Shown here in pieces: positions 7,858 through 56,399 of a stretch of 64,000 nt of DNA (within the stretch, counting starts at the first letter, position 1; each line of letters opens with the position of its first letter). The notes below the pieces were generated by a model, which saw only the letters and a list, made by a program, of their open reading frames with translations, was not told the origin of the DNA and did not search any database. The stretch is taken from IMG/VR virus record IMGVR_UViG_2740892427_000001, one strand, 5' to 3'. Both the position numbers and the translations under genes were made by a program. The DNA comes from a virus (Duplodnaviria; Heunggongvirae; Uroviricota; Caudoviricetes).

Positions 7858-8439
7858 ATAAACTCCTGAATCAAGCGCCGCGCCGATTTTTTCCTCGCGC
7901 GTGCGCACACGCGTGCGTGTTAATAATTATTAAAATAAACAAATTACTTCCCAGAACAGGTTTTTATAAACCTGAACTGAACGAACGAAGTGAGTGAAGT
8001 TCACCTCGAACGAAGTGAGAGGTTGTCTTTTCAGGTAATACTCTCCCAGGGAGGTGAGTATAAAATTCCTCACCAACCTGGTCGTTTCATAACCTGAAAA
8101 GCTATGGTCTAAGTCTACTGCCAGCTTAGACTTGGGAAGTTATGGATGACAGCACCCCAGAACCGAGATCTTCCCACACTTTATGAAGGGGAGTACTGGA
8201 TTCAACCTCTCGAAACACCCCAGACTCGACAATCATAAAGTGACCCTTGTCTCTGCTCACTTTGGTTCCCCCTTCCCCGACACCTATACGGCACCGGTTC
8301 TACGCTGGTAGTGAGCTTTTTTAAACCTGACGCCAGTGACGCTTACCCCCACCCATCAGGTCGAGCCTCCAGTCTACGACTGGAAACTATCATATCTTAG
8401 CACTTACAATTCACTTTATGAATAGTTTGTACTTATCTA

Positions 8440-8694
8440 TCATTGTGATTGATTATTTTCTCGACCATGTAGTTGAACATTCAAGGCAAACACCTCATTG
8501 ATCAACTCACCTAAAAGCTGTTCAACAAGTTCGCGATGCTCTCCAAGATGCAAGCACTTAATTGCCCACTCGTACAAGTTGAAAGCCTGCTCACGATCTT
8601 TCATCATTTCACGAGCCTGGGCCAGAAAATCGCTCTCTACGAGCGCAACGACATTAGTCGGGTATGACATGTTGGTTTCCTTAAAGTGGTTCAT
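8440..8694 (-). CDS. hypothetical protein (84 aa)
   Basis: ORF. Confidence 0.45.
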   Translation of the reverse strand: MNHFKETNMSYPTNVVALVESDFLAQAREMMKDREQAFNLYEWAIKCLHLGEHRELVEQLLGELINEVFALNVQLHGRENNQSQ

Positions 8695-8773
8695 AAAATC
8701 GATTTTAAAGCGTCTGGGAAGGGGTTCTAGTGGATTCTGTAGTGATGTTCAGGTCTGGAGTCTCTGATACAAA

Positions 8774-8834
8774 ACAGCCTGCTTCCGTATATTAATAATT
8801 AATATGTAGTTATTTATATATACAGAAGCAGGCT
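8774..8834 (-). terminator. long stem-loop AGCCTGCTTCCGTATAT-n23-ATATACAGAAGCAGGCT just downstream of the Dam gene
   Basis: 17-bp arms, AT-rich loop, U-rich tract follows on the minus strand. Confidence 0.5.
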
Positions 8835-8855: not shown

Positions 8856-9449
8856 CTAAGCAGCCTTCTTTGATGGTCTTTTTTTCCTGATCACATTCGC
8901 AGGATCATACCCTCCCAGACTTTTCATGACGTCCAAAGGGATCTTGCTTATAGAGTGCCCAGCGTCCTGACAGAATCCTCGAAAAACAACGAGCATACTG
9001 CCACCGGGGTTGATGTTTACTTCTACCTGACCCAAATTGACGTCAGGCTCGACAAACGCTACGCGGCCACCAGACAGAATAATCGTCTCATTCGCATACT
9101 CTGTTGCACGCTCATACCACTTTGTATCGAGGGATTGAGGAATTAGCATCACTGTTGTAACTCCGCGAGCCTGCTCACGTATAGCAGCATCAATCCAGGG
9201 GGAGATTTTGGAGTAGGGTGGATTGAGGAAGGCAATTGTACCTGGCTGTCCCCATTCAGATTTCAAAGCATCACGCTCAATGCCTATGAAATTAGGCAGC
9301 TTTGCGTTGTCCTTGTTGCAGGCAACGTCAACATCAAATGTCACTCCAAGATAACGTTGAATGGCAGAAAACAGCCAATCAGGTGTTCTCCAGAGGTCAC
9401 GAAGAGAGTTGTCGCGCTTTCGCTGTTTGATTTTTTCGGCTGCAATCAT
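8856..9449 (-). CDS. phage-type DNA N6-adenine methyltransferase (Dam-like)
   Basis: LNPPYSKISPWIDAA motif and ~200-aa size typical of small phage Dam enzymes. Confidence 0.75.
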   Translation of the reverse strand: MIAAEKIKQRKRDNSLRDLWRTPDWLFSAIQRYLGVTFDVDVACNKDNAKLPNFIGIERDALKSEWGQPGTIAFLNPPYSKISPWIDAAIREQARGVTTVMLIPQSLDTKWYERATEYANETIILSGGRVAFVEPDVNLGQVEVNINPGGSMLVVFRGFCQDAGHSISKIPLDVMKSLGGYDPANVIRKKRPSKKAA

Positions 9450-10442: not shown

Positions 10443-10600
10443 GTAAGTCTCCTTCTGTTTGGTTACATTTGCGTTTCGATGGCTACATTTTGACTAAACC
10501 TATCAGGCGGAAAAGTATTAAATACAGGCAGGAAATGATTGAAAGGCGACTGTTCTTTAAAAGAAAGCCTACTTTAAACTTTTTAAAGTAGGCTTTTGTT

Positions 10601-11155
10601 TTACACAATTTCAGAGGGTAATTTAAAAAATCCGTACTTATTACGTGCCTTAAAGAAGCATTGCATCATTAAGTTTGTGTCATATAAGGCACTATGTGCT
10701 TTGGCATGATCGTATATAAAGCCAAGAGAGAAGGCCAACTCTTCAAGGCGGGGACGTTTACCGTCTTCTGTGGCCCACAGGGAAAATATAGTGTCAATCA
10801 ATGGGATGTCTGGAAGCGAAAAACCGTAACTTTTCAGCTCATGCCTAATAAACGGAATATCGAACGCTTCGCCGTTGTGGGCTATCCAAATATCGGAAGA
10901 AGAGAGATACGAAGCGACAGATGAAGCGTGATCGGCTAGTAACGGCTCGGCGGCTAAATCTTCAAGACTGATGCCGTGTACCGCTTGCGCTTTCGGATCG
11001 ATACTGCGACGCGGGTTGAACCGCATTACAAAACTATCAACCATTGTCTGTGTCTCCAGTTCATAGCGGGTAATTGCGATTTCAATAATTTTATGACCAG
11101 CAAGGAAATCCAGTCCCGTAGACTCGATATCGATGCCTGCAACAATCGTTGTCAT
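10601..11155 (-). CDS. DnaQ-like 3'-5' exonuclease (DEDDh, Pol III epsilon-like)
   Basis: Exo I GIDIESTG, Exo II HNGEAFDIPF, Exo III HSALYDT. Confidence 0.8.
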   Translation of the reverse strand: MTTIVAGIDIESTGLDFLAGHKIIEIAITRYELETQTMVDSFVMRFNPRRSIDPKAQAVHGISLEDLAAEPLLADHASSVASYLSSSDIWIAHNGEAFDIPFIRHELKSYGFSLPDIPLIDTIFSLWATEDGKRPRLEELAFSLGFIYDHAKAHSALYDTNLMMQCFFKARNKYGFFKLPSEIV

Positions 11156-30525: not shown

Positions 30526-32865
30526 TTACTCTTCTACTGACTCGGTGGGGTTGTCTTTTGCTCTTCGGTCGTCGATTGCCTGCAAAGCCGCAATGATTTC
30601 AGCCAGTGGCTTCTCCCGATACATCTCGACGATCTGCGATTTGGTGTATTTCTTGTCACCAATTTCAACTCGCCCGCTGGCGTTCTTTGGCAGGTATCCT
30701 TCTTCCAGCATGTACTCGACGAGCGATTCGATAACGTCGAGGCCACGAGTAGGATCGAAGTAGAATTTCCAGGTGCATTTGCCATACGGTGGTGCAACTT
30801 TGTTTTTGATGCATTCTGCGCCTACGTCCTGGCCGATCTTCTCTTTACCATCCTTCATCACCGATGCACCAAGACGGATACGTACAGAAGCGTAGAACTT
30901 CGGTGAATCGCCGCCTGGTGACGTAGTAGGGTCGCCAAACATTACACCGATTTTTGTGCGAACCTGATTCAAGAAGATGATGCAGGCGTTGTATTTGCGT
31001 GCCCACAAAGCCAGAGTAGGGAAGTTCGCACTCGTCGCACGAGCCAGTGCCGTATTGTCGTTCATGTTTAGCTGATCTTTGTCTTTGGCAGTGCCTTCAG
31101 CCATCTTTTCGAACTTCTCGGCTTTGGAGTTCGGAACCATAGACGCAAGAGAGTCAGCCACGATACAGATAGGTGCTGATTCGGGGATAAGCTCTTCATC
31201 ACGAACCAATTTAAGTATTGTGCCGATCAACTCTACAGAGTCTTCGAAGGTATCTGGCTGCTTGTATACCCACTGACCGTCATCCTCATCTGCGTTCAGG
31301 CCATTGGCTACAGCCAGGCCAACGTCAAAACTGTTTTCATGATCGAGGAATACCGCCAGACCATCTTGTTTTTGAGCGGAGATCATCGCTGCTGTTGCAA
31401 GGAATGTGTTGTGGCTGATAATCCCGTTAGACCAGAAAGAGTGTGTTTCCGGCATCGCTACGTCGAACGTTGGTGCTTCACCTTCCTCAATAGCCACGAC
31501 TTCGTCGTAGAACAAGTTAGAGCCAATTACCGCTGCCAGTTGTGCAAACAGATGCTCGTTAAAACGATTCTTTCTGCCAATGAAGGAGACATAGATTTCT
31601 CGCAGTTTGTCTATTCCGACACGATCGCCGCGGCCAATAACGTGGTCTACCAGAGCGTAGTCTTCACGGGTGGTCTTGGTGAGCGACTCGTAGAGTGATT
31701 TCACTAAGCCGCTGATGTGCGGAACATAGCCTGAGTAAGTGCGGTCAAAACCAATGTCCCGTTTGGTTGCCACTGATAAACGTGCCGGAGATTCGAAACC
31801 AATCGTTGACAGAAAAAGGTCGTAATTAGAGCCACTGAATGACAGCCGGTAATATGTATTTTCATAACCCGCGACGTGTTTTTCAGAGATAGTTGACGTA
31901 ATCCCCAGATTCAGGAGCATGAGGCGAATTTGCTGTAGCAGCAGCCCACTCGCGCTCACAACCTCAATGCAGCGACCATCATTGACGTGGCATTCCAGCT
32001 CAAAGTAGCCGCGAAGGAATGCAATTTGAGCCTCGCTATTGGCGCGACGCACACTCAACGGAACCTGCTTGCCAGCATCTTTCTCATACTCCAGACCATA
32101 TTCTTTAAAAAGCAGCGAACGCACCTCTTTGCTAAACAGCACATGGTCTTCCGAGCCGTTATGTTTTCTCGTAACTGGCATCTTGTCTGATACCAGCGAA
32201 ATGAGGCGGTAGTACTCATCCTTGATGAAAGGATCTGTGTTAGAAAAATTCACTGAATTTTCAGAGGCCACGTATCCGTCAGCAATTAAATAGCCCATCA
32301 GTTTTGCGATATTGGCATCCAGGTGCTGATCGCCGAATTGATGTGTGCCAACCATTGAAGGAATCGTGTCGCCTACACTGATTTTTTCAGCATGTCGCCA
32401 GACGACATTACCTAAGTCGTCAACCACACGGATTGGGTGACGGAACGTAGCCTCGATATAACCGCCTGATGCCAGCTTAATACGCTTGAATTTGCGACGG
32501 TTGTTCCATGTCAGGTGTGAGGTCTTCTCTATCACGCCATTTTCATTGATGAGTCCAACGTTATGCTCTACATCGCGAGTAGTGCATGTCGCTTTGTACC
32601 CTTCAATCTCAAACAACTCTTTCACTGTTACCATTCCACGCTCCGTCAGCAGCATGGTGTCTGCGGTAACACATTTCCCCGCGCTTGGTGGCCCGAATAC
32701 TTCGACGATACGACCACATGGGAAGCCGCCATCGTAACGACCAGAAATAGCTTTGTTTAACGGTGGAAAGCCTGTATCAATCCAATGAGTTACTTTCTGA
32801 ATTTCGTCGTTGCTACCGATTTTCTTTTTCAGAGCAAGTGCCAGTGCGGATTTTCCTTTTGCCAT
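30526..32865 (-). CDS. recA: RecA/UvsX-like recombinase precursor containing an intein
   Basis: exteins GRIVEVFGPPSAGK / TFLATAAMISAQ...IIFLNQVRTKIGVMFGDP...KFYASVRIRLG match the RecA core; 422-aa insert in the P-loop. Confidence 0.9.
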   Translation of the reverse strand: MAKGKSALALALKKKIGSNDEIQKVTHWIDTGFPPLNKAISGRYDGGFPCGRIVEVFGPPSAGKCVTADTMLLTERGMVTVKELFEIEGYKATCTTRDVEHNVGLINENGVIEKTSHLTWNNRRKFKRIKLASGGYIEATFRHPIRVVDDLGNVVWRHAEKISVGDTIPSMVGTHQFGDQHLDANIAKLMGYLIADGYVASENSVNFSNTDPFIKDEYYRLISLVSDKMPVTRKHNGSEDHVLFSKEVRSLLFKEYGLEYEKDAGKQVPLSVRRANSEAQIAFLRGYFELECHVNDGRCIEVVSASGLLLQQIRLMLLNLGITSTISEKHVAGYENTYYRLSFSGSNYDLFLSTIGFESPARLSVATKRDIGFDRTYSGYVPHISGLVKSLYESLTKTTREDYALVDHVIGRGDRVGIDKLREIYVSFIGRKNRFNEHLFAQLAAVIGSNLFYDEVVAIEEGEAPTFDVAMPETHSFWSNGIISHNTFLATAAMISAQKQDGLAVFLDHENSFDVGLAVANGLNADEDDGQWVYKQPDTFEDSVELIGTILKLVRDEELIPESAPICIVADSLASMVPNSKAEKFEKMAEGTAKDKDQLNMNDNTALARATSANFPTLALWARKYNACIIFLNQVRTKIGVMFGDPTTSPGGDSPKFYASVRIRLGASVMKDGKEKIGQDVGAECIKNKVAPPYGKCTWKFYFDPTRGLDVIESLVEYMLEEGYLPKNASGRVEIGDKKYTKSQIVEMYREKPLAEIIAALQAIDDRRAKDNPTESVEE
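31408..32673 (-). mobile_element. intein with LAGLIDADG homing-endonuclease domain, inserted in the recA Walker A motif
   Basis: starts Cys (CVTADTMLL), TxxH block ATFRHP, LMGYLIADGYV and FLRGYFELECHV, ends ...NGIISHN followed by Thr+1. Confidence 0.8.
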
Positions 32866-36964: not shown

Positions 36965-37148
36965 AGCATCGTTGGTTTGCAAGACAGACCTTATGTAAGC
37001 AGTTTTAGTAAAGCAGTCTCAGTTCAGTGTTATCTTCTGATTTCCCTTCTTCGTGAGTCTCCTCCTTAAGTGCCTAAGTAAGTCCCAATCTATACAGATC
37101 AAATTCTCGCCGCACTATGTGGCTCACAAAATTAAGAAGGTAATATCT

Positions 37149-37364
37149 ATGTCTAATAAAATGACTGGTTTAGTAAAATGGTTTAACTCTGATAAAGGCT
37201 TTGGCTTTATTTCTCCTGCTGATGGCAGTAAAGATGTTTTTGTACATTTTTCGGCAATTCAGAGTAATAATTTCCGCACTTTGGAAGAAGGCCAGCAGGT
37301 CGAATTCTCTATCGAGAATGGTGCTAAAGGCCCAGCAGCAGCAAATGTCGTTGCTCTAAGCTGA
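37149..37364 (+). CDS. cspA: cold-shock protein, CspA family
   Basis: [23 protein letters not shown]...[10 protein letters not shown]...[20 protein letters not shown]: RNP1/RNP2 cold-shock-domain motifs; start set to internal ATG 37149. Confidence 0.9.
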
Positions 37365-37639
37365 TTCAACGCTGATGATCCTCATTTCTACAATAACGAA
37401 GACGGTGTAAGCCTGAGTGGATAGATTTGTAGGATTGTACAAGTTGAATAAATTAGCATGGTAAGGCCATGCTAATTAAATCGACACAACGGCCAGTTTA
37501 TTCCATAAAAGTGAATTGCCCATTGTGGCGAAATGCGGGGTTGCCGCATGAATAGTCAAAGGCAGAAGCTAACTGCCGGCATGGCAAAACAAAGTGCGTA
37601 AGAGGAGTGACTTCCTCAACAAGCGCCATAATTCTTTAT

Positions 37640-47784: not shown

Positions 47785-47864
47785 TCACAGCGTTGAGCGG
47801 TCTGGTTTATGTTAGCGGAGTCTTAATCTGGGTGATTAAAAGGCCAAACCGCTCAACGCTGTGT
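47785..47864 (-). other. long stem-loop (~20-bp stem, 38-nt loop) immediately 3' of tRNA-Ser
   Basis: arms atcacagcgttgagcggtctgg / ccaaaccgctcaacgctgtg; the single mismatch is G-U-compatible only in the minus-strand transcript. Confidence 0.5.
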
Positions 47865-47952: not shown

Positions 47953-48050
47953 AGCTATTGTGATGGTCGGTGCTGAACTCCGACACAGGGTTGTAGCAAG
48001 CCCCGCAAAGCGCGCACTACTGTAGTTGCGGCACATCAGCCTGTGCATTC

Positions 48051-48133
48051 ATCACAACGGTAAGATCACTACCTTTCGACCAGTCATTGTGCACATGAAC
48101 GACGATTAACCGTAATGATCTTATCGTTGTGTT
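48051..48133 (-). other. imperfect long stem-loop in tRNA spacer
   Basis: arms atcacaacggtaagatcact / aatgatcttatcgttgtg. Confidence 0.35.
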
Positions 48134-48180
48134 GTGAAGCCAGATGCTTATCTTCTGGTTGCTTCAAAGAGCTGCACTTC

Positions 48181-48272: not shown

Positions 48273-48348
48273 TGGTGCCGGTTAACGGGATCGAACCGCT
48301 GACATCCTGCTTACAAGGCAGACGCTCTACCAACTGAGCTAAACCGGC
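48273..48348 (-). tRNA. tRNA-Thr (anticodon UGU), encoded CCA
   Basis: GCCGGTTTAGCTCAGTTGGTAGAGC...CUUGUAA...GGTTCGATCCCGTTAACCGGCACCA. Confidence 0.8.
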
Positions 48349-48352
48349 AATT

Positions 48353-48439
48353 TGGTGGGGAGTGATGGAGTCGAACCACCCGAGTCGCAATGACAGTAGA
48401 TTTACAGTCTACCCCGCTGCCCCTACGGACTAACTCCCC
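48353..48439 (-). tRNA. tRNA-Tyr (anticodon GUA), long variable arm, encoded CCA
   Basis: anticodon arm GTAGACTGTAAATCTAC, T-loop GGTTCGACTCC, acceptor GGGGAGT/ACTCCCC. Confidence 0.8.
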
Positions 48440-48444
48440 TAAAT

Positions 48445-48519
48445 TGGCGATGGTGGGTGGATTCGAACCACCGACCAGTTGGTTAACAGCCAACTGCTCT
48501 ACCGCTGAGCTACACCATC
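48445..48519 (-). tRNA. tRNA-Asn (anticodon GUU), encoded CCA
   Basis: GATGGTGTAGCTCAGCGGTAGAGC...GTTGGCTGTTAACCAAC...GGTTCGAATCCACC. Confidence 0.8.
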
Positions 48520-48909: not shown

Positions 48910-49069
48910 CTGGCTAACCATACCAGCCGGGCTACGTCGCCGCTTTTTAACCCAGTATAAACGACATAATTGAACAAAATGACGTAACAGGATGGGCGGT
49001 CAGTGGCTAAGAATCCGGGAGTCATATGGAGTTGAAAATATACCAACCGCCCATTCTGTTACTTCATCG

Positions 49070-55484: not shown

Positions 55485-56234
55485 TTAATTAGATAGGGGA
55501 TCAATAAACCGCCGTGCTTCTTCCAGTTCTTCTGGAAAGTGGGCGGAAATAAGGCGCTCTGGAACGATTTCCATTAGCCAGATAGCGGAGAAAATTGCGC
55601 GTATGCGCTTGCTGCGAGGGATGGTGCGCAAACGCTCCAGAATCCACTCAAAATAGCTTTCCTGAATCGGGTTGAACTGCATGTCTCCCATATGCTTAAA
55701 GCTAACCAGAGAGTCATCCAGACGGGTTGTTGCGCGTATGGCTAATTTCTCTTCAAATATCTCAATCAGTTCTGGCTGCCACAAATGCTGTGGGCGAGGC
55801 AGCTTGTCCCACAGACGTCGTGCAGCTGCGGAAAGAACAGTGGAGATAAAGTAGTCGTATGAGCAGCAATAGCGATCCGCAAACTGGCGTGCTTTCCATA
55901 GCGACGTTTTATTGGCAGTCGACAACTCCTGATAAGGCAGGCGTTTTAACCCGGTGGTGAACGGAGCTGTTTCAAAGTGTTCGCGACCGTGCGTCAGCAT
56001 GATATTTGAGTACTGACGTTTGTATGCCTCCGTAAAAAGACAGGTGGCCATGAGAGGATGCATGTCGCGGTAATCAAACCACTTCGTCTCGAAGAGTTCA
56101 GCCTCGTCTTTACAGCGCGACAAACCAATGTTTTCAGCGACCCACTTGTCCATAACAGCGGTATTCCACTCTGTCATGAAGTCGTACTGGTCGTTGTCGA
56201 TGGTATCGAAAAAGATTTGGCTCATGTGGCTCAC
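55485..56234 (-). CDS. hypothetical protein (249 aa)
   Basis: ORF upstream of the helicase gene. Confidence 0.5.
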   Translation of the reverse strand: MSHMSQIFFDTIDNDQYDFMTEWNTAVMDKWVAENIGLSRCKDEAELFETKWFDYRDMHPLMATCLFTEAYKRQYSNIMLTHGREHFETAPFTTGLKRLPYQELSTANKTSLWKARQFADRYCCSYDYFISTVLSAAARRLWDKLPRPQHLWQPELIEIFEEKLAIRATTRLDDSLVSFKHMGDMQFNPIQESYFEWILERLRTIPRSKRIRAIFSAIWLMEIVPERLISAHFPEELEEARRFIDPLSN

Positions 56235-56341
56235 CTGGTAGGTAGTTACTTACTTATCACAATGAGCGGATGATAGCGACTGGTGGCAGTTTTTGGAAGT
56301 GGAAACGGAAGGGAATGTATCTGGGAAGTCAGCAGAGAAAA

Positions 56342-56399
56342 GACCTGCTTCCGTATAAATAATAATAAGTAACTTAGTATTTATATACAGAAGCAGGTC
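56342..56399 (-). other. long stem-loop GACCTGCTTCCGTATA-n26-TATACAGAAGCAGGTC, paralog of 8774-8834
   Basis: shared 14-bp arms with the same G-U-compatible mismatch in both copies. Confidence 0.5.

Follow-up and report, generated by a model that had tools for sequence, protein, structure and literature searches.

Two related hairpins in an SSU5-like phage-plasmid

The stretch of DNA analysed in this work (64,000 nt, hereafter referred to as the window) shows 98% identity to Escherichia phage Cyrano, the pLF82 phage-plasmid of E. coli LF82, and to CMS-2020a, and about 78–83% identity to Salmonella phage SSU5, which, judged by sequence, makes it an SSU5-like phage-plasmid. Two long hairpins are present in it (Table 1). 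Every gene in the vicinity of both hairpins is encoded on the minus strand, with the exception of one window-specific ORF next to the second hairpin.

Hairpin copy 1 starts 21 nt past the stop codon of a Dam methyltransferase gene and has a U-run behind it on the minus strand, in agreement with its original description as a terminator-like element following this gene. About 500 nt downstream of this copy, the homologue of CYRAN_81 (8126–8260, minus strand) is found, a 44-aa ORF. In LF82 lysogens, CYRAN_81 reached 117 counts in the RNA-seq table with its neighbours at background, and it could be a moron or a small RNA.

Copy 2 is situated, as had been described, in a divergent intergenic region upstream of the first gene of the helicase-primase operon, at a distance of 107 nt. 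In the window, this copy has no co-directional gene upstream; its neighbour is a plus-strand cargo gene, and the short hairpin beyond that gene also ends the convergent par operon. In the intervals from each hairpin to its downstream gene, no strong match to the sigma-70 promoter consensus was detected. Directly 3' of copy 2, at 56270–56320 on the minus strand, there is a conserved stretch with five TTCC repeats (CTTCCCAGAtACATTCCCTTCCGTTTCCACTTCC), after which a weak promoter-like pair, TTCCAA-17-TATCAT, was recognised by eye, under the threshold of the scan. This stretch and the promoter-like pair may represent the regulated promoter region of the helicase operon.

Table 1. Positions of the hairpins and neighbouring features in the window.
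Feature	Coordinates	Strand	Remarks
Next co-directional gene 3' of copy 1	8440..8694	-	Hypothetical, CYRAN_80 homologue
U-rich tail of copy 1	8767..8775	-	GUUUUGUAU
Hairpin copy 1 (Dam locus)	8776..8834	-	17-nt arms, AT-rich interior partly paired
Dam methyltransferase gene	8856..9449	-	Pfam PF05869, E = 5e-38
249-aa gene	55485..56234	-	First gene of the helicase-primase operon
U-rich tail of copy 2	56333..56341	-	UUUUCUCUG
Hairpin copy 2 (helicase locus)	56342..56399	-	16-nt arms; covariance model 82.2 bits
Window-specific cargo gene	56598..57275	+	225 aa, without Pfam match; occupies the variable slot to the left of copy 2
Ordinary 7-bp bidirectional terminator-like hairpin	57291..57308	.	Separates the cargo gene from the convergent parG-like gene
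parA (222 aa) and 119-aa parG-like gene	57314..58341	-	In relatives, the operon continues via cargo to copy 2

Structure of the hairpins

Both copies were predicted to be paralogous hairpins sharing their arms and one wobble-compatible pair, and this is confirmed at both positions. The 14-nt arms CCTGCTTCCGTATA and TATACAGAAGCAGG of copy 1 (8778–8791 and 8819–8832) recur identically in copy 2 (56344–56357 and 56384–56397), and the sole non-Watson-Crick pair is in both cases C·A on the plus strand, corresponding to U·G on the minus strand. When the closing pairs are included, copy 1 possesses 17-nt arms (8776–8792 and 8818–8834) with 25 nt between them, and copy 2 possesses 16-nt arms (56342–56357 and 56384–56399) with 26 nt between them, each 94% complementary. 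The AT-rich loops of the two copies are homologous as well, a point missing from the original description; therefore, the whole unit of ~57 nt was duplicated, more than the arms.

On either strand, both copies fold with z-scores of -5.2 to -6.8, and none of 200 shuffles folded as well. The 101-nt minus-strand segments reached -31.2 and -32.5 kcal/mol (z = -5.2 and -6.6). A covariance model of the hairpin was built from relatives and scanned over the 64 kb window, where it scored copy 2 at 82.2 bits (E ~1e-14) and copy 1 at 77.8 bits (E ~1e-13) on the minus strand. No third copy was detected in the window, the next match being an unrelated hairpin at ~21 bits (maximum 21.5). This difference in score excludes chance and leaves exactly two copies in the window. 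At the gathering threshold, no Rfam family matched either hairpin, and the sub-threshold matches were generic long hairpins (miRNA precursors).

The best match of the model outside the family (21 bits) is a near-perfect palindrome at 10559–10601, which lies between two minus-strand genes and has 20-nt arms (AAAAGAAAGCCTACTTTAAA and TTTAAAGTAGGCTTTTGTTT). It looks like an ordinary bidirectional terminator.

A hairpin family at three fixed loci

The complete Cyrano genome contains exactly three copies of the hairpin. The first follows Dam, the second separates the parA / parG-like / cargo operon from the 249-aa / helicase / primase operon, and the third, which lies outside the window, is located between an 88-aa gene and terS. 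When the 249-aa protein, Dam and TerS served as search anchors, the same three loci came up wherever the contigs allowed, and neither new nor empty insertion sites were found among the genomes inspected. Thus, while the window itself holds only two copies, related genomes have three fixed loci, and the element is conserved among them, so the original prediction, which a lack of further copies and of conservation in relatives would have helped to refute, stands in this respect.

A pattern scan of viral contigs yielded more than 120 hairpin loci, and BLAST located the hairpin in 740 PLSDB plasmids, including pMT1 of Y. pestis. The hosts of these plasmids are Klebsiella, Escherichia, Enterobacter, Yersinia, Salmonella, Citrobacter and Cronobacter, and nearly all of the plasmids are about 100–125 kb in size and non-mobilisable. 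Searching species-representative genomes with the 249-aa profile gave seven loci, with two very distant homologues carrying upstream hairpins of other sequence, and in the most divergent lineage the hairpin loop extends to roughly 50 nt. Combined, this is a widespread hairpin repeat family, and apparently an undescribed one: the literature searched contained no earlier description of it, and papers pairing "SSU5" with "hairpin" were unrelated to it.

A fourth copy in a plasmid of E. albertii is only apparent, as the stretch is duplicated in the record. In this circular record (NZ_CP099878.1), the genes of ~1.1–12.2 kb recur at ~110.5–121.6 kb (roughly at least 11 kb) together with a second terS-locus hairpin, which is probably an assembly overlap. 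Among the species-representative genomes, SSU5-like contigs bearing the hairpin also turned up in metagenome-assembled genomes that are called "Bacillota bacterium" and "Candidatus Fimivivens"; these are most likely mis-binned contigs of enterobacterial phage-plasmids.

Conservation of the arms

The arms are 92–97% identical, both among orthologues and between paralogous loci (92% for the three paralogous loci), while the loops (69–86%) and the 40-nt flanks (50–79%) drift. In a covariation test on 42 distinct copies, the signal did not rise above that of shuffles; because the arms hardly vary, this result carries no information on RNA structure in either direction. The shared wobble position is not fixed and appears as U·G, C-G, U-A or C·A among relatives. 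In one Dam-locus lineage, another arm position has undergone a complete C-G to U-A change, and in the helicase-locus copies a further one runs through C-G, U·G and U-A. The length of the element ranges from 51 to 57 nt among relatives as a result of TA slippage.

On the sense strand, G·U exceeds C·A at two loci (39:3 and 9:1), while the Dam locus shows no excess (9:11). This strand bias was considered as proof of function at the RNA level and rejected as decisive, since it fails at the Dam locus and could also be produced by recombination that joins unlike arms or by C-to-T mutation biased to one strand.

Several genomes have helicase-locus and terS-locus copies that agree at 55 of 55 positions, and a rare arm variant may recur at two loci of one genome, in one case in inverted register. 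Such patterns suggest gene conversion among the copies, a process made plausible by annotated homologues of RecA, UvsY and UvsW. We infer that the identity of the copies stems from common descent and such gene conversion, which, together with selection for a long stem, can explain the likeness of the arms without a dedicated recognition protein. The claim that the arms are conserved in sequence, beyond structure, is borne out by their identity and the covariation null, but the protein or RNA recognition site deduced from it is possible and not required, given that gene conversion may suffice and that the varying length of the element argues against a rigid dimeric DNA-binding site.

Cargo exchange at the helicase locus

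The homology between the window and its relatives ends exactly at the edge of copy 2, beyond which lies variable cargo with its own terminator. Therefore, copy 2 is a retained backbone feature and no divergent-promoter element. Across 78 helicase loci, 21 unrelated left-flank classes were counted compared with four right-flank classes, with the junction at the base of the stem, and up to eight different cargos adjoin one hairpin type. The left-arm variants tend to move with the cargo, which leads to chimeric U·G pairs; a matching U-A pair is retained in one genome. The ~30 nt on the right-hand side of the hairpin occur in two exchangeable types.

Probable termination of transcription at the hairpins

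In principle, an intrinsic terminator requires a stable G+C-containing stem-loop in the transcript and a U-tract right after the stem. Both window copies provide the stem-loop, and both are followed by a U-tract on the minus strand, which is conserved at these two loci in most lineages; the plus-strand tails of both copies are poor in U. The Cyrano counterparts of these U-runs lie at about 31214–31222 and 78139–78147. At the helicase locus, 78 of 80 viral-contig relatives have 103–122 nt between the hairpin and the 249-aa gene, and a TCTTTT-type U-run nearly always follows the hairpin (TCATTT, TCTTGT and CATGTT are among the few variants). Where upstream ORFs were inspected, namely in Cyrano, SSU5 and other relatives, it lies 6 to ~55 nt past the last co-directional cargo gene. 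Copy 1 is located downstream of a co-directional gene in the window itself, and copy 2 in the relatives read. The original description saw no obvious terminator role for copy 2, but this applies to the cargo gene of the window only, as the hairpin of relatives closes a co-directional operon. Within the window, the lack of a co-directional gene upstream and the separate terminator of the par operon do count against a terminator at copy 2.

Published RNA-seq of LF82 bears on the Cyrano orthologue of copy 2. CYRAN_28, CYRAN_29 and CYRAN_30 show 50, 89 and 55 normalised counts, respectively, and CYRAN_31, immediately beyond the hairpin, shows ~6 counts at a background median of 9.8 (PMC9928086 Table S1). 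In one condition, log2 values of 10.4 and 2.6 were recorded on the two sides of the hairpin (PMC9928086 Table S1). This gene-level fall shows that a transcription unit ends within the 193-nt gap, and the hairpin is its probable end point. At the Dam and terS loci, the genes on both sides are at background in the lysogen, and hence these data are uninformative there (PMC9928086 Table S1).

The stems of E. coli terminators average 7–8 bp, with a typical geometry of 7–9 bp and a loop of 3–5 nt, and in another system terminators with stems longer than 14 bp resist processive antitermination (PMC10325885). With 16–17 bp and an A+U-rich extension, the hairpins described here depart from this geometry, which is atypical yet not disqualifying for a terminator. 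A simple terminator scan called neither window copy. The tails of the Dam-locus copies with a U-run score 2.9–4.0, and that of the E. coli-lineage type nearest to the window scores 2.87, compared with a 99th percentile of 3.17 for the background in the window.

The terS copy has the same arms but lacks a U-tract on the sense strand (tail score 1.0–2.0), and the U-tract is likewise absent from the Dam-locus copies of two distant lineages. Therefore, termination cannot by itself account for the family. A distant Dam lineage shows a decayed hairpin of which the right arm persists as a remnant, and 10 nt downstream of this remnant a canonical terminator is found (13-bp stem followed by GUUUUUCU), which looks like a functional replacement of the hairpin.

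Taken together, we consider it somewhat better than an even chance that the hairpins are long-stem intrinsic terminators which insulate the modules of SSU5-like phage-plasmids. On the minus strand, the transcript would form a stem of 16–17 bp, rich in G+C at its base and both A+U-rich and partly paired at its top, ahead of the U-run. This structure would stop the upstream unit, either Dam or parA / parG-like / cargo, and would thereby keep read-through from reaching the module that comes next (the CYRAN_80 array or the helicase-primase operon). Termination would take place at the hairpin itself, and the long stem may render the stop robust, for instance against antitermination. The likeness of the copies would reflect their descent and conversion, and at the helicase locus the hairpin would double as the fixed right-hand junction of the cargo-exchange slot. 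Besides the copies that lack a U-tract, points that weigh against this reading are the covariation null, the failure of the G·U excess at the Dam locus and the lack of a strong sigma-70 match ahead of the downstream genes.

Alternative explanations

Many copies are enclosed by an outer inverted repeat (GGTCTGGGAG ... CTCCCAGACC), the 3' half of which lies beyond the U-run, and the whole units of ~100–125 nt fold into a rod of -42.8 to -51.1 kcal/mol (z = -8.1 to -9.4). Complementarity of the flanks is strong at the terS locus (mean z = -3.2) and at the Dam locus of four SSU5/Klebsiella-type representatives (z = -3.4 to -4.1), weak at the Dam locus of the window lineage (z about -0.9), and absent at the helicase locus (mean z -0.2), where many cargo variants have wholly removed the left strand of the outer repeat. 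A distant lineage displays the same architecture, although both the inner and the outer helices differ in sequence. In phage lambda, read-through of sib/tI completes an RNase III substrate. The hairpin could similarly be the core of a ~100-nt rod serving in RNase III processing or retroregulation, a reading that we regard as possible though unlikely. Terminated RNAs would then retain a protective 3' hairpin, whereas read-through would complete the outer helix and expose it to RNase III. Such cutting, e.g. of antiterminated lytic transcripts, might separate or destabilise the upstream message, and it could coexist with a terminator. The position of the outer 3' strand beyond the U-run, the flank scores at terS and at the SSU5/Klebsiella Dam loci, and the architecture kept by the distant lineage with different helix sequences all argue for this reading, which also accommodates the copies without a U-tract. 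However, the outer helix is weak or missing in the two copies of the window, its left strand is lost in many cargo variants, and all of these observations fit a DNA palindrome equally well.

A palindrome read as DNA by a phage-plasmid protein, whether as repressor operator, transcription roadblock, dispersed centromere, or packaging or replication site, and perhaps acting as a terminator too, is in our judgement distinctly unlikely. It would account for arms that stay nearly identical at three loci and in several genera while loops and flanks drift, for the terS copy that keeps these arms without a U-tract, and for the placement of each of the three sites shortly before a lytic module (terS, helicase-primase and the early array). 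There is also precedent for a terminator palindrome that is a LexA site (bioRxiv 10.64898/2026.08.19.745784). A dimeric operator or a parS-like centromere would nevertheless be expected to have half-sites at a fixed spacing, and the spacing varies by 6 bp (51–57 nt elements), which is unfavourable for a dimer touching both arms. In addition, arm mismatches are tolerated, and the three copies of the Cyrano genome include none near the parA promoter or a repressor gene. The SSU5 and Cyrano database records both open within the loop of the terS copy, which also speaks for this reading, but record ends inside a repeated palindrome are also a product of assembly breaks, and two viral contigs likewise end within the helicase-locus copy. 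The numerous left-flank classes, the eight cargos on one hairpin type, the homology edge in the window and the left-arm variants travelling with the cargo could instead point to a recombination anchor or cassette boundary, selected primarily for cargo swapping. This we hold to be very improbable: of the three loci, only the helicase locus serves as a hot spot for cargo, and the flanks at Dam and terS are conserved; the exchangeable segment to the right indicates that the hairpin is not the sole crossover point; and any conserved 55-nt island beside a variable slot would act likewise as a by-product. A palindromic unit with terminal inverted repeats, an AT-rich centre and several copies per genome also resembles a MITE-like miniature mobile element or an integron attC-like site inserted at several places. 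As all genomes examined carry it at the same three loci, extra or empty sites were not found, no target-site duplication was noticed in an unsystematic look, and Rfam gave no match, the chance of such an origin is close to negligible.

Several specific candidates were rejected. The RYYYAAC and GTTRRRY boxes of attC are absent, by eye, from the ends GACCTGC ... GCAGGTC, and a single site beside cargo forms no cassette array. As for a MITE, all genomes inspected are occupied at the same three loci, and the one extra copy belongs to a duplicated stretch of a record. For the flanking CCCAGAC, a role as a promoter or operator motif of general use was considered, but the rest of the window shows no enrichment of it. 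A cos or packaging site at the terS copy had been suggested by the record ends, for which an artefact of assembly or record opening was judged more likely. In GenBank, the SSU5 and Cyrano records were opened inside the terS hairpin loop 1 nt apart, which splits this copy into the segments 28342–28379 and 1–17 in Cyrano, and ~964–1000 and 1–18 in SSU5; these openings probably result from an assembly break or from a record-opening convention at a repeated palindrome, and less probably from a physical DNA end next to terS.

Comparison with known systems

The lambda sib/tI site, treated reportedly by Plunkett and Echols in 1989, resembles the present elements in that a terminator hairpin is embedded in a longer helix, the far strand of which is transcribed only on read-through. 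It differs in being a single site in lambda, compared with three here, and the outer helix is weak or missing in the window copies. The RNase III sites of phages T7 and T3, on which Dunn and Studier are said to have reported in 1973, are alike in being several similar intergenic hairpins on the coding strand between co-directional genes. The T7 sites are characterised by an internal bubble and are not known to have a terminator U-run. T7/T3 sites share no sequence similarity with the SSU5-type hairpin, whose processing is conjectural. PeSL cassettes of the T4 type and lambdoid boundary sequences also place a repeated stem-loop at the edges of variable slots, where it offers homology for shuffling. 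In contrast to these, the SSU5-type hairpin has three copies only, of which one lies by a variable slot, and no promoter was recognised inside it.

The closest likeness in geometry is to TerR of the Bacillus plasmid pLS20, which combines a stem far over 7–9 bp with a G+C-rich base and a U-run, and which likewise closes an operon of a mobile element ahead of genes that have to be kept silent (PMC10325885). The resistance of TerR is independent of sequence and the element occupies a single site (PMC10325885), whereas the SSU5-type hairpin keeps one sequence at three loci across genera, with one copy lacking the U-tract. Moreover, unlike for TerR, no antitermination system was identified in the phage-plasmids analysed here. 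The yobI terminator, in which a terminator-stem palindrome bound by LexA lies directly upstream of the next unit (bioRxiv 10.64898/2026.08.19.745784), has a comparable position; in contrast, a protein that binds the SSU5-type hairpin is hypothetical, and the spacing of the hairpin arms is variable.

Other structured elements

Between the terS hairpin and the start of terS, at ~40–134 of Cyrano, a direct repeat (AAACAAGTTG) occurs twice. The same stretch holds a second, canonical terminator-like hairpin (AGAGCGC..GCGCTCT followed by GUGUGUUUU) that abuts the ribosome-binding site. This second hairpin is conserved across lineages, with a compensatory change from GAGCGC/GCGCUC to GAGCAC/GUGCUC. 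A conserved terminator-like hairpin before terS suggests that the late operon may be under antitermination control.

Elsewhere in the window, the stretch 36971–37389 (plus strand) gave a full-length match to the Rfam cspA thermoregulator (RF01766, 187.6 bits), and a 5' leader of the cold-shock type is thus apparently part of the phage-plasmid. The three longest inverted repeats of the window (47786–47863, 48050–48134 and 48979–49067), with arms of 20–23 nt set 38–45 nt apart, flank a cluster of three tRNA genes at 48276–48519 (minus strand).

Implications for SSU5-like phage-plasmids

SSU5-like phage-plasmids are commonly carried by clinical Enterobacteriaceae, and plasmids found in Salmonella and in Yersinia pestis (pMT1) belong to the group. 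Accessory genes travel on SSU5-like phage-plasmids, and resistance genes on phage-plasmids have been reported in the literature. As a fixed edge of a variable slot, the copy-2 hairpin bears on where such cargo is exchanged. The 55-nt palindrome is also a compact sequence marker for the SSU5-like group, and it explains the tendency of short-read assemblies of these plasmids to break there.

In the literature searched, there was no account of how SSU5-like elements silence their lytic modules beside constitutively expressed plasmid genes. A conserved stop signal repeated three times at module borders provides a testable handle on this insulation. It is conceivable, though we think it improbable, that the hairpin and the GGTCTGGGAG / CTCCCAGACC repeat together constitute a sequence-specific switch common to SSU5-, pHCM2- and pMT1-type elements. 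If so, the plasmid state would correspond to a dead-stop terminator at three module borders, and on induction a phage factor (an antiterminator, an RNA-binding protein, or RNase III cutting the completed rod) would read the arms and jointly open or process all three borders. One signal would then couple the replication, early and late modules, and the same unit would be the crossover point for cargo.
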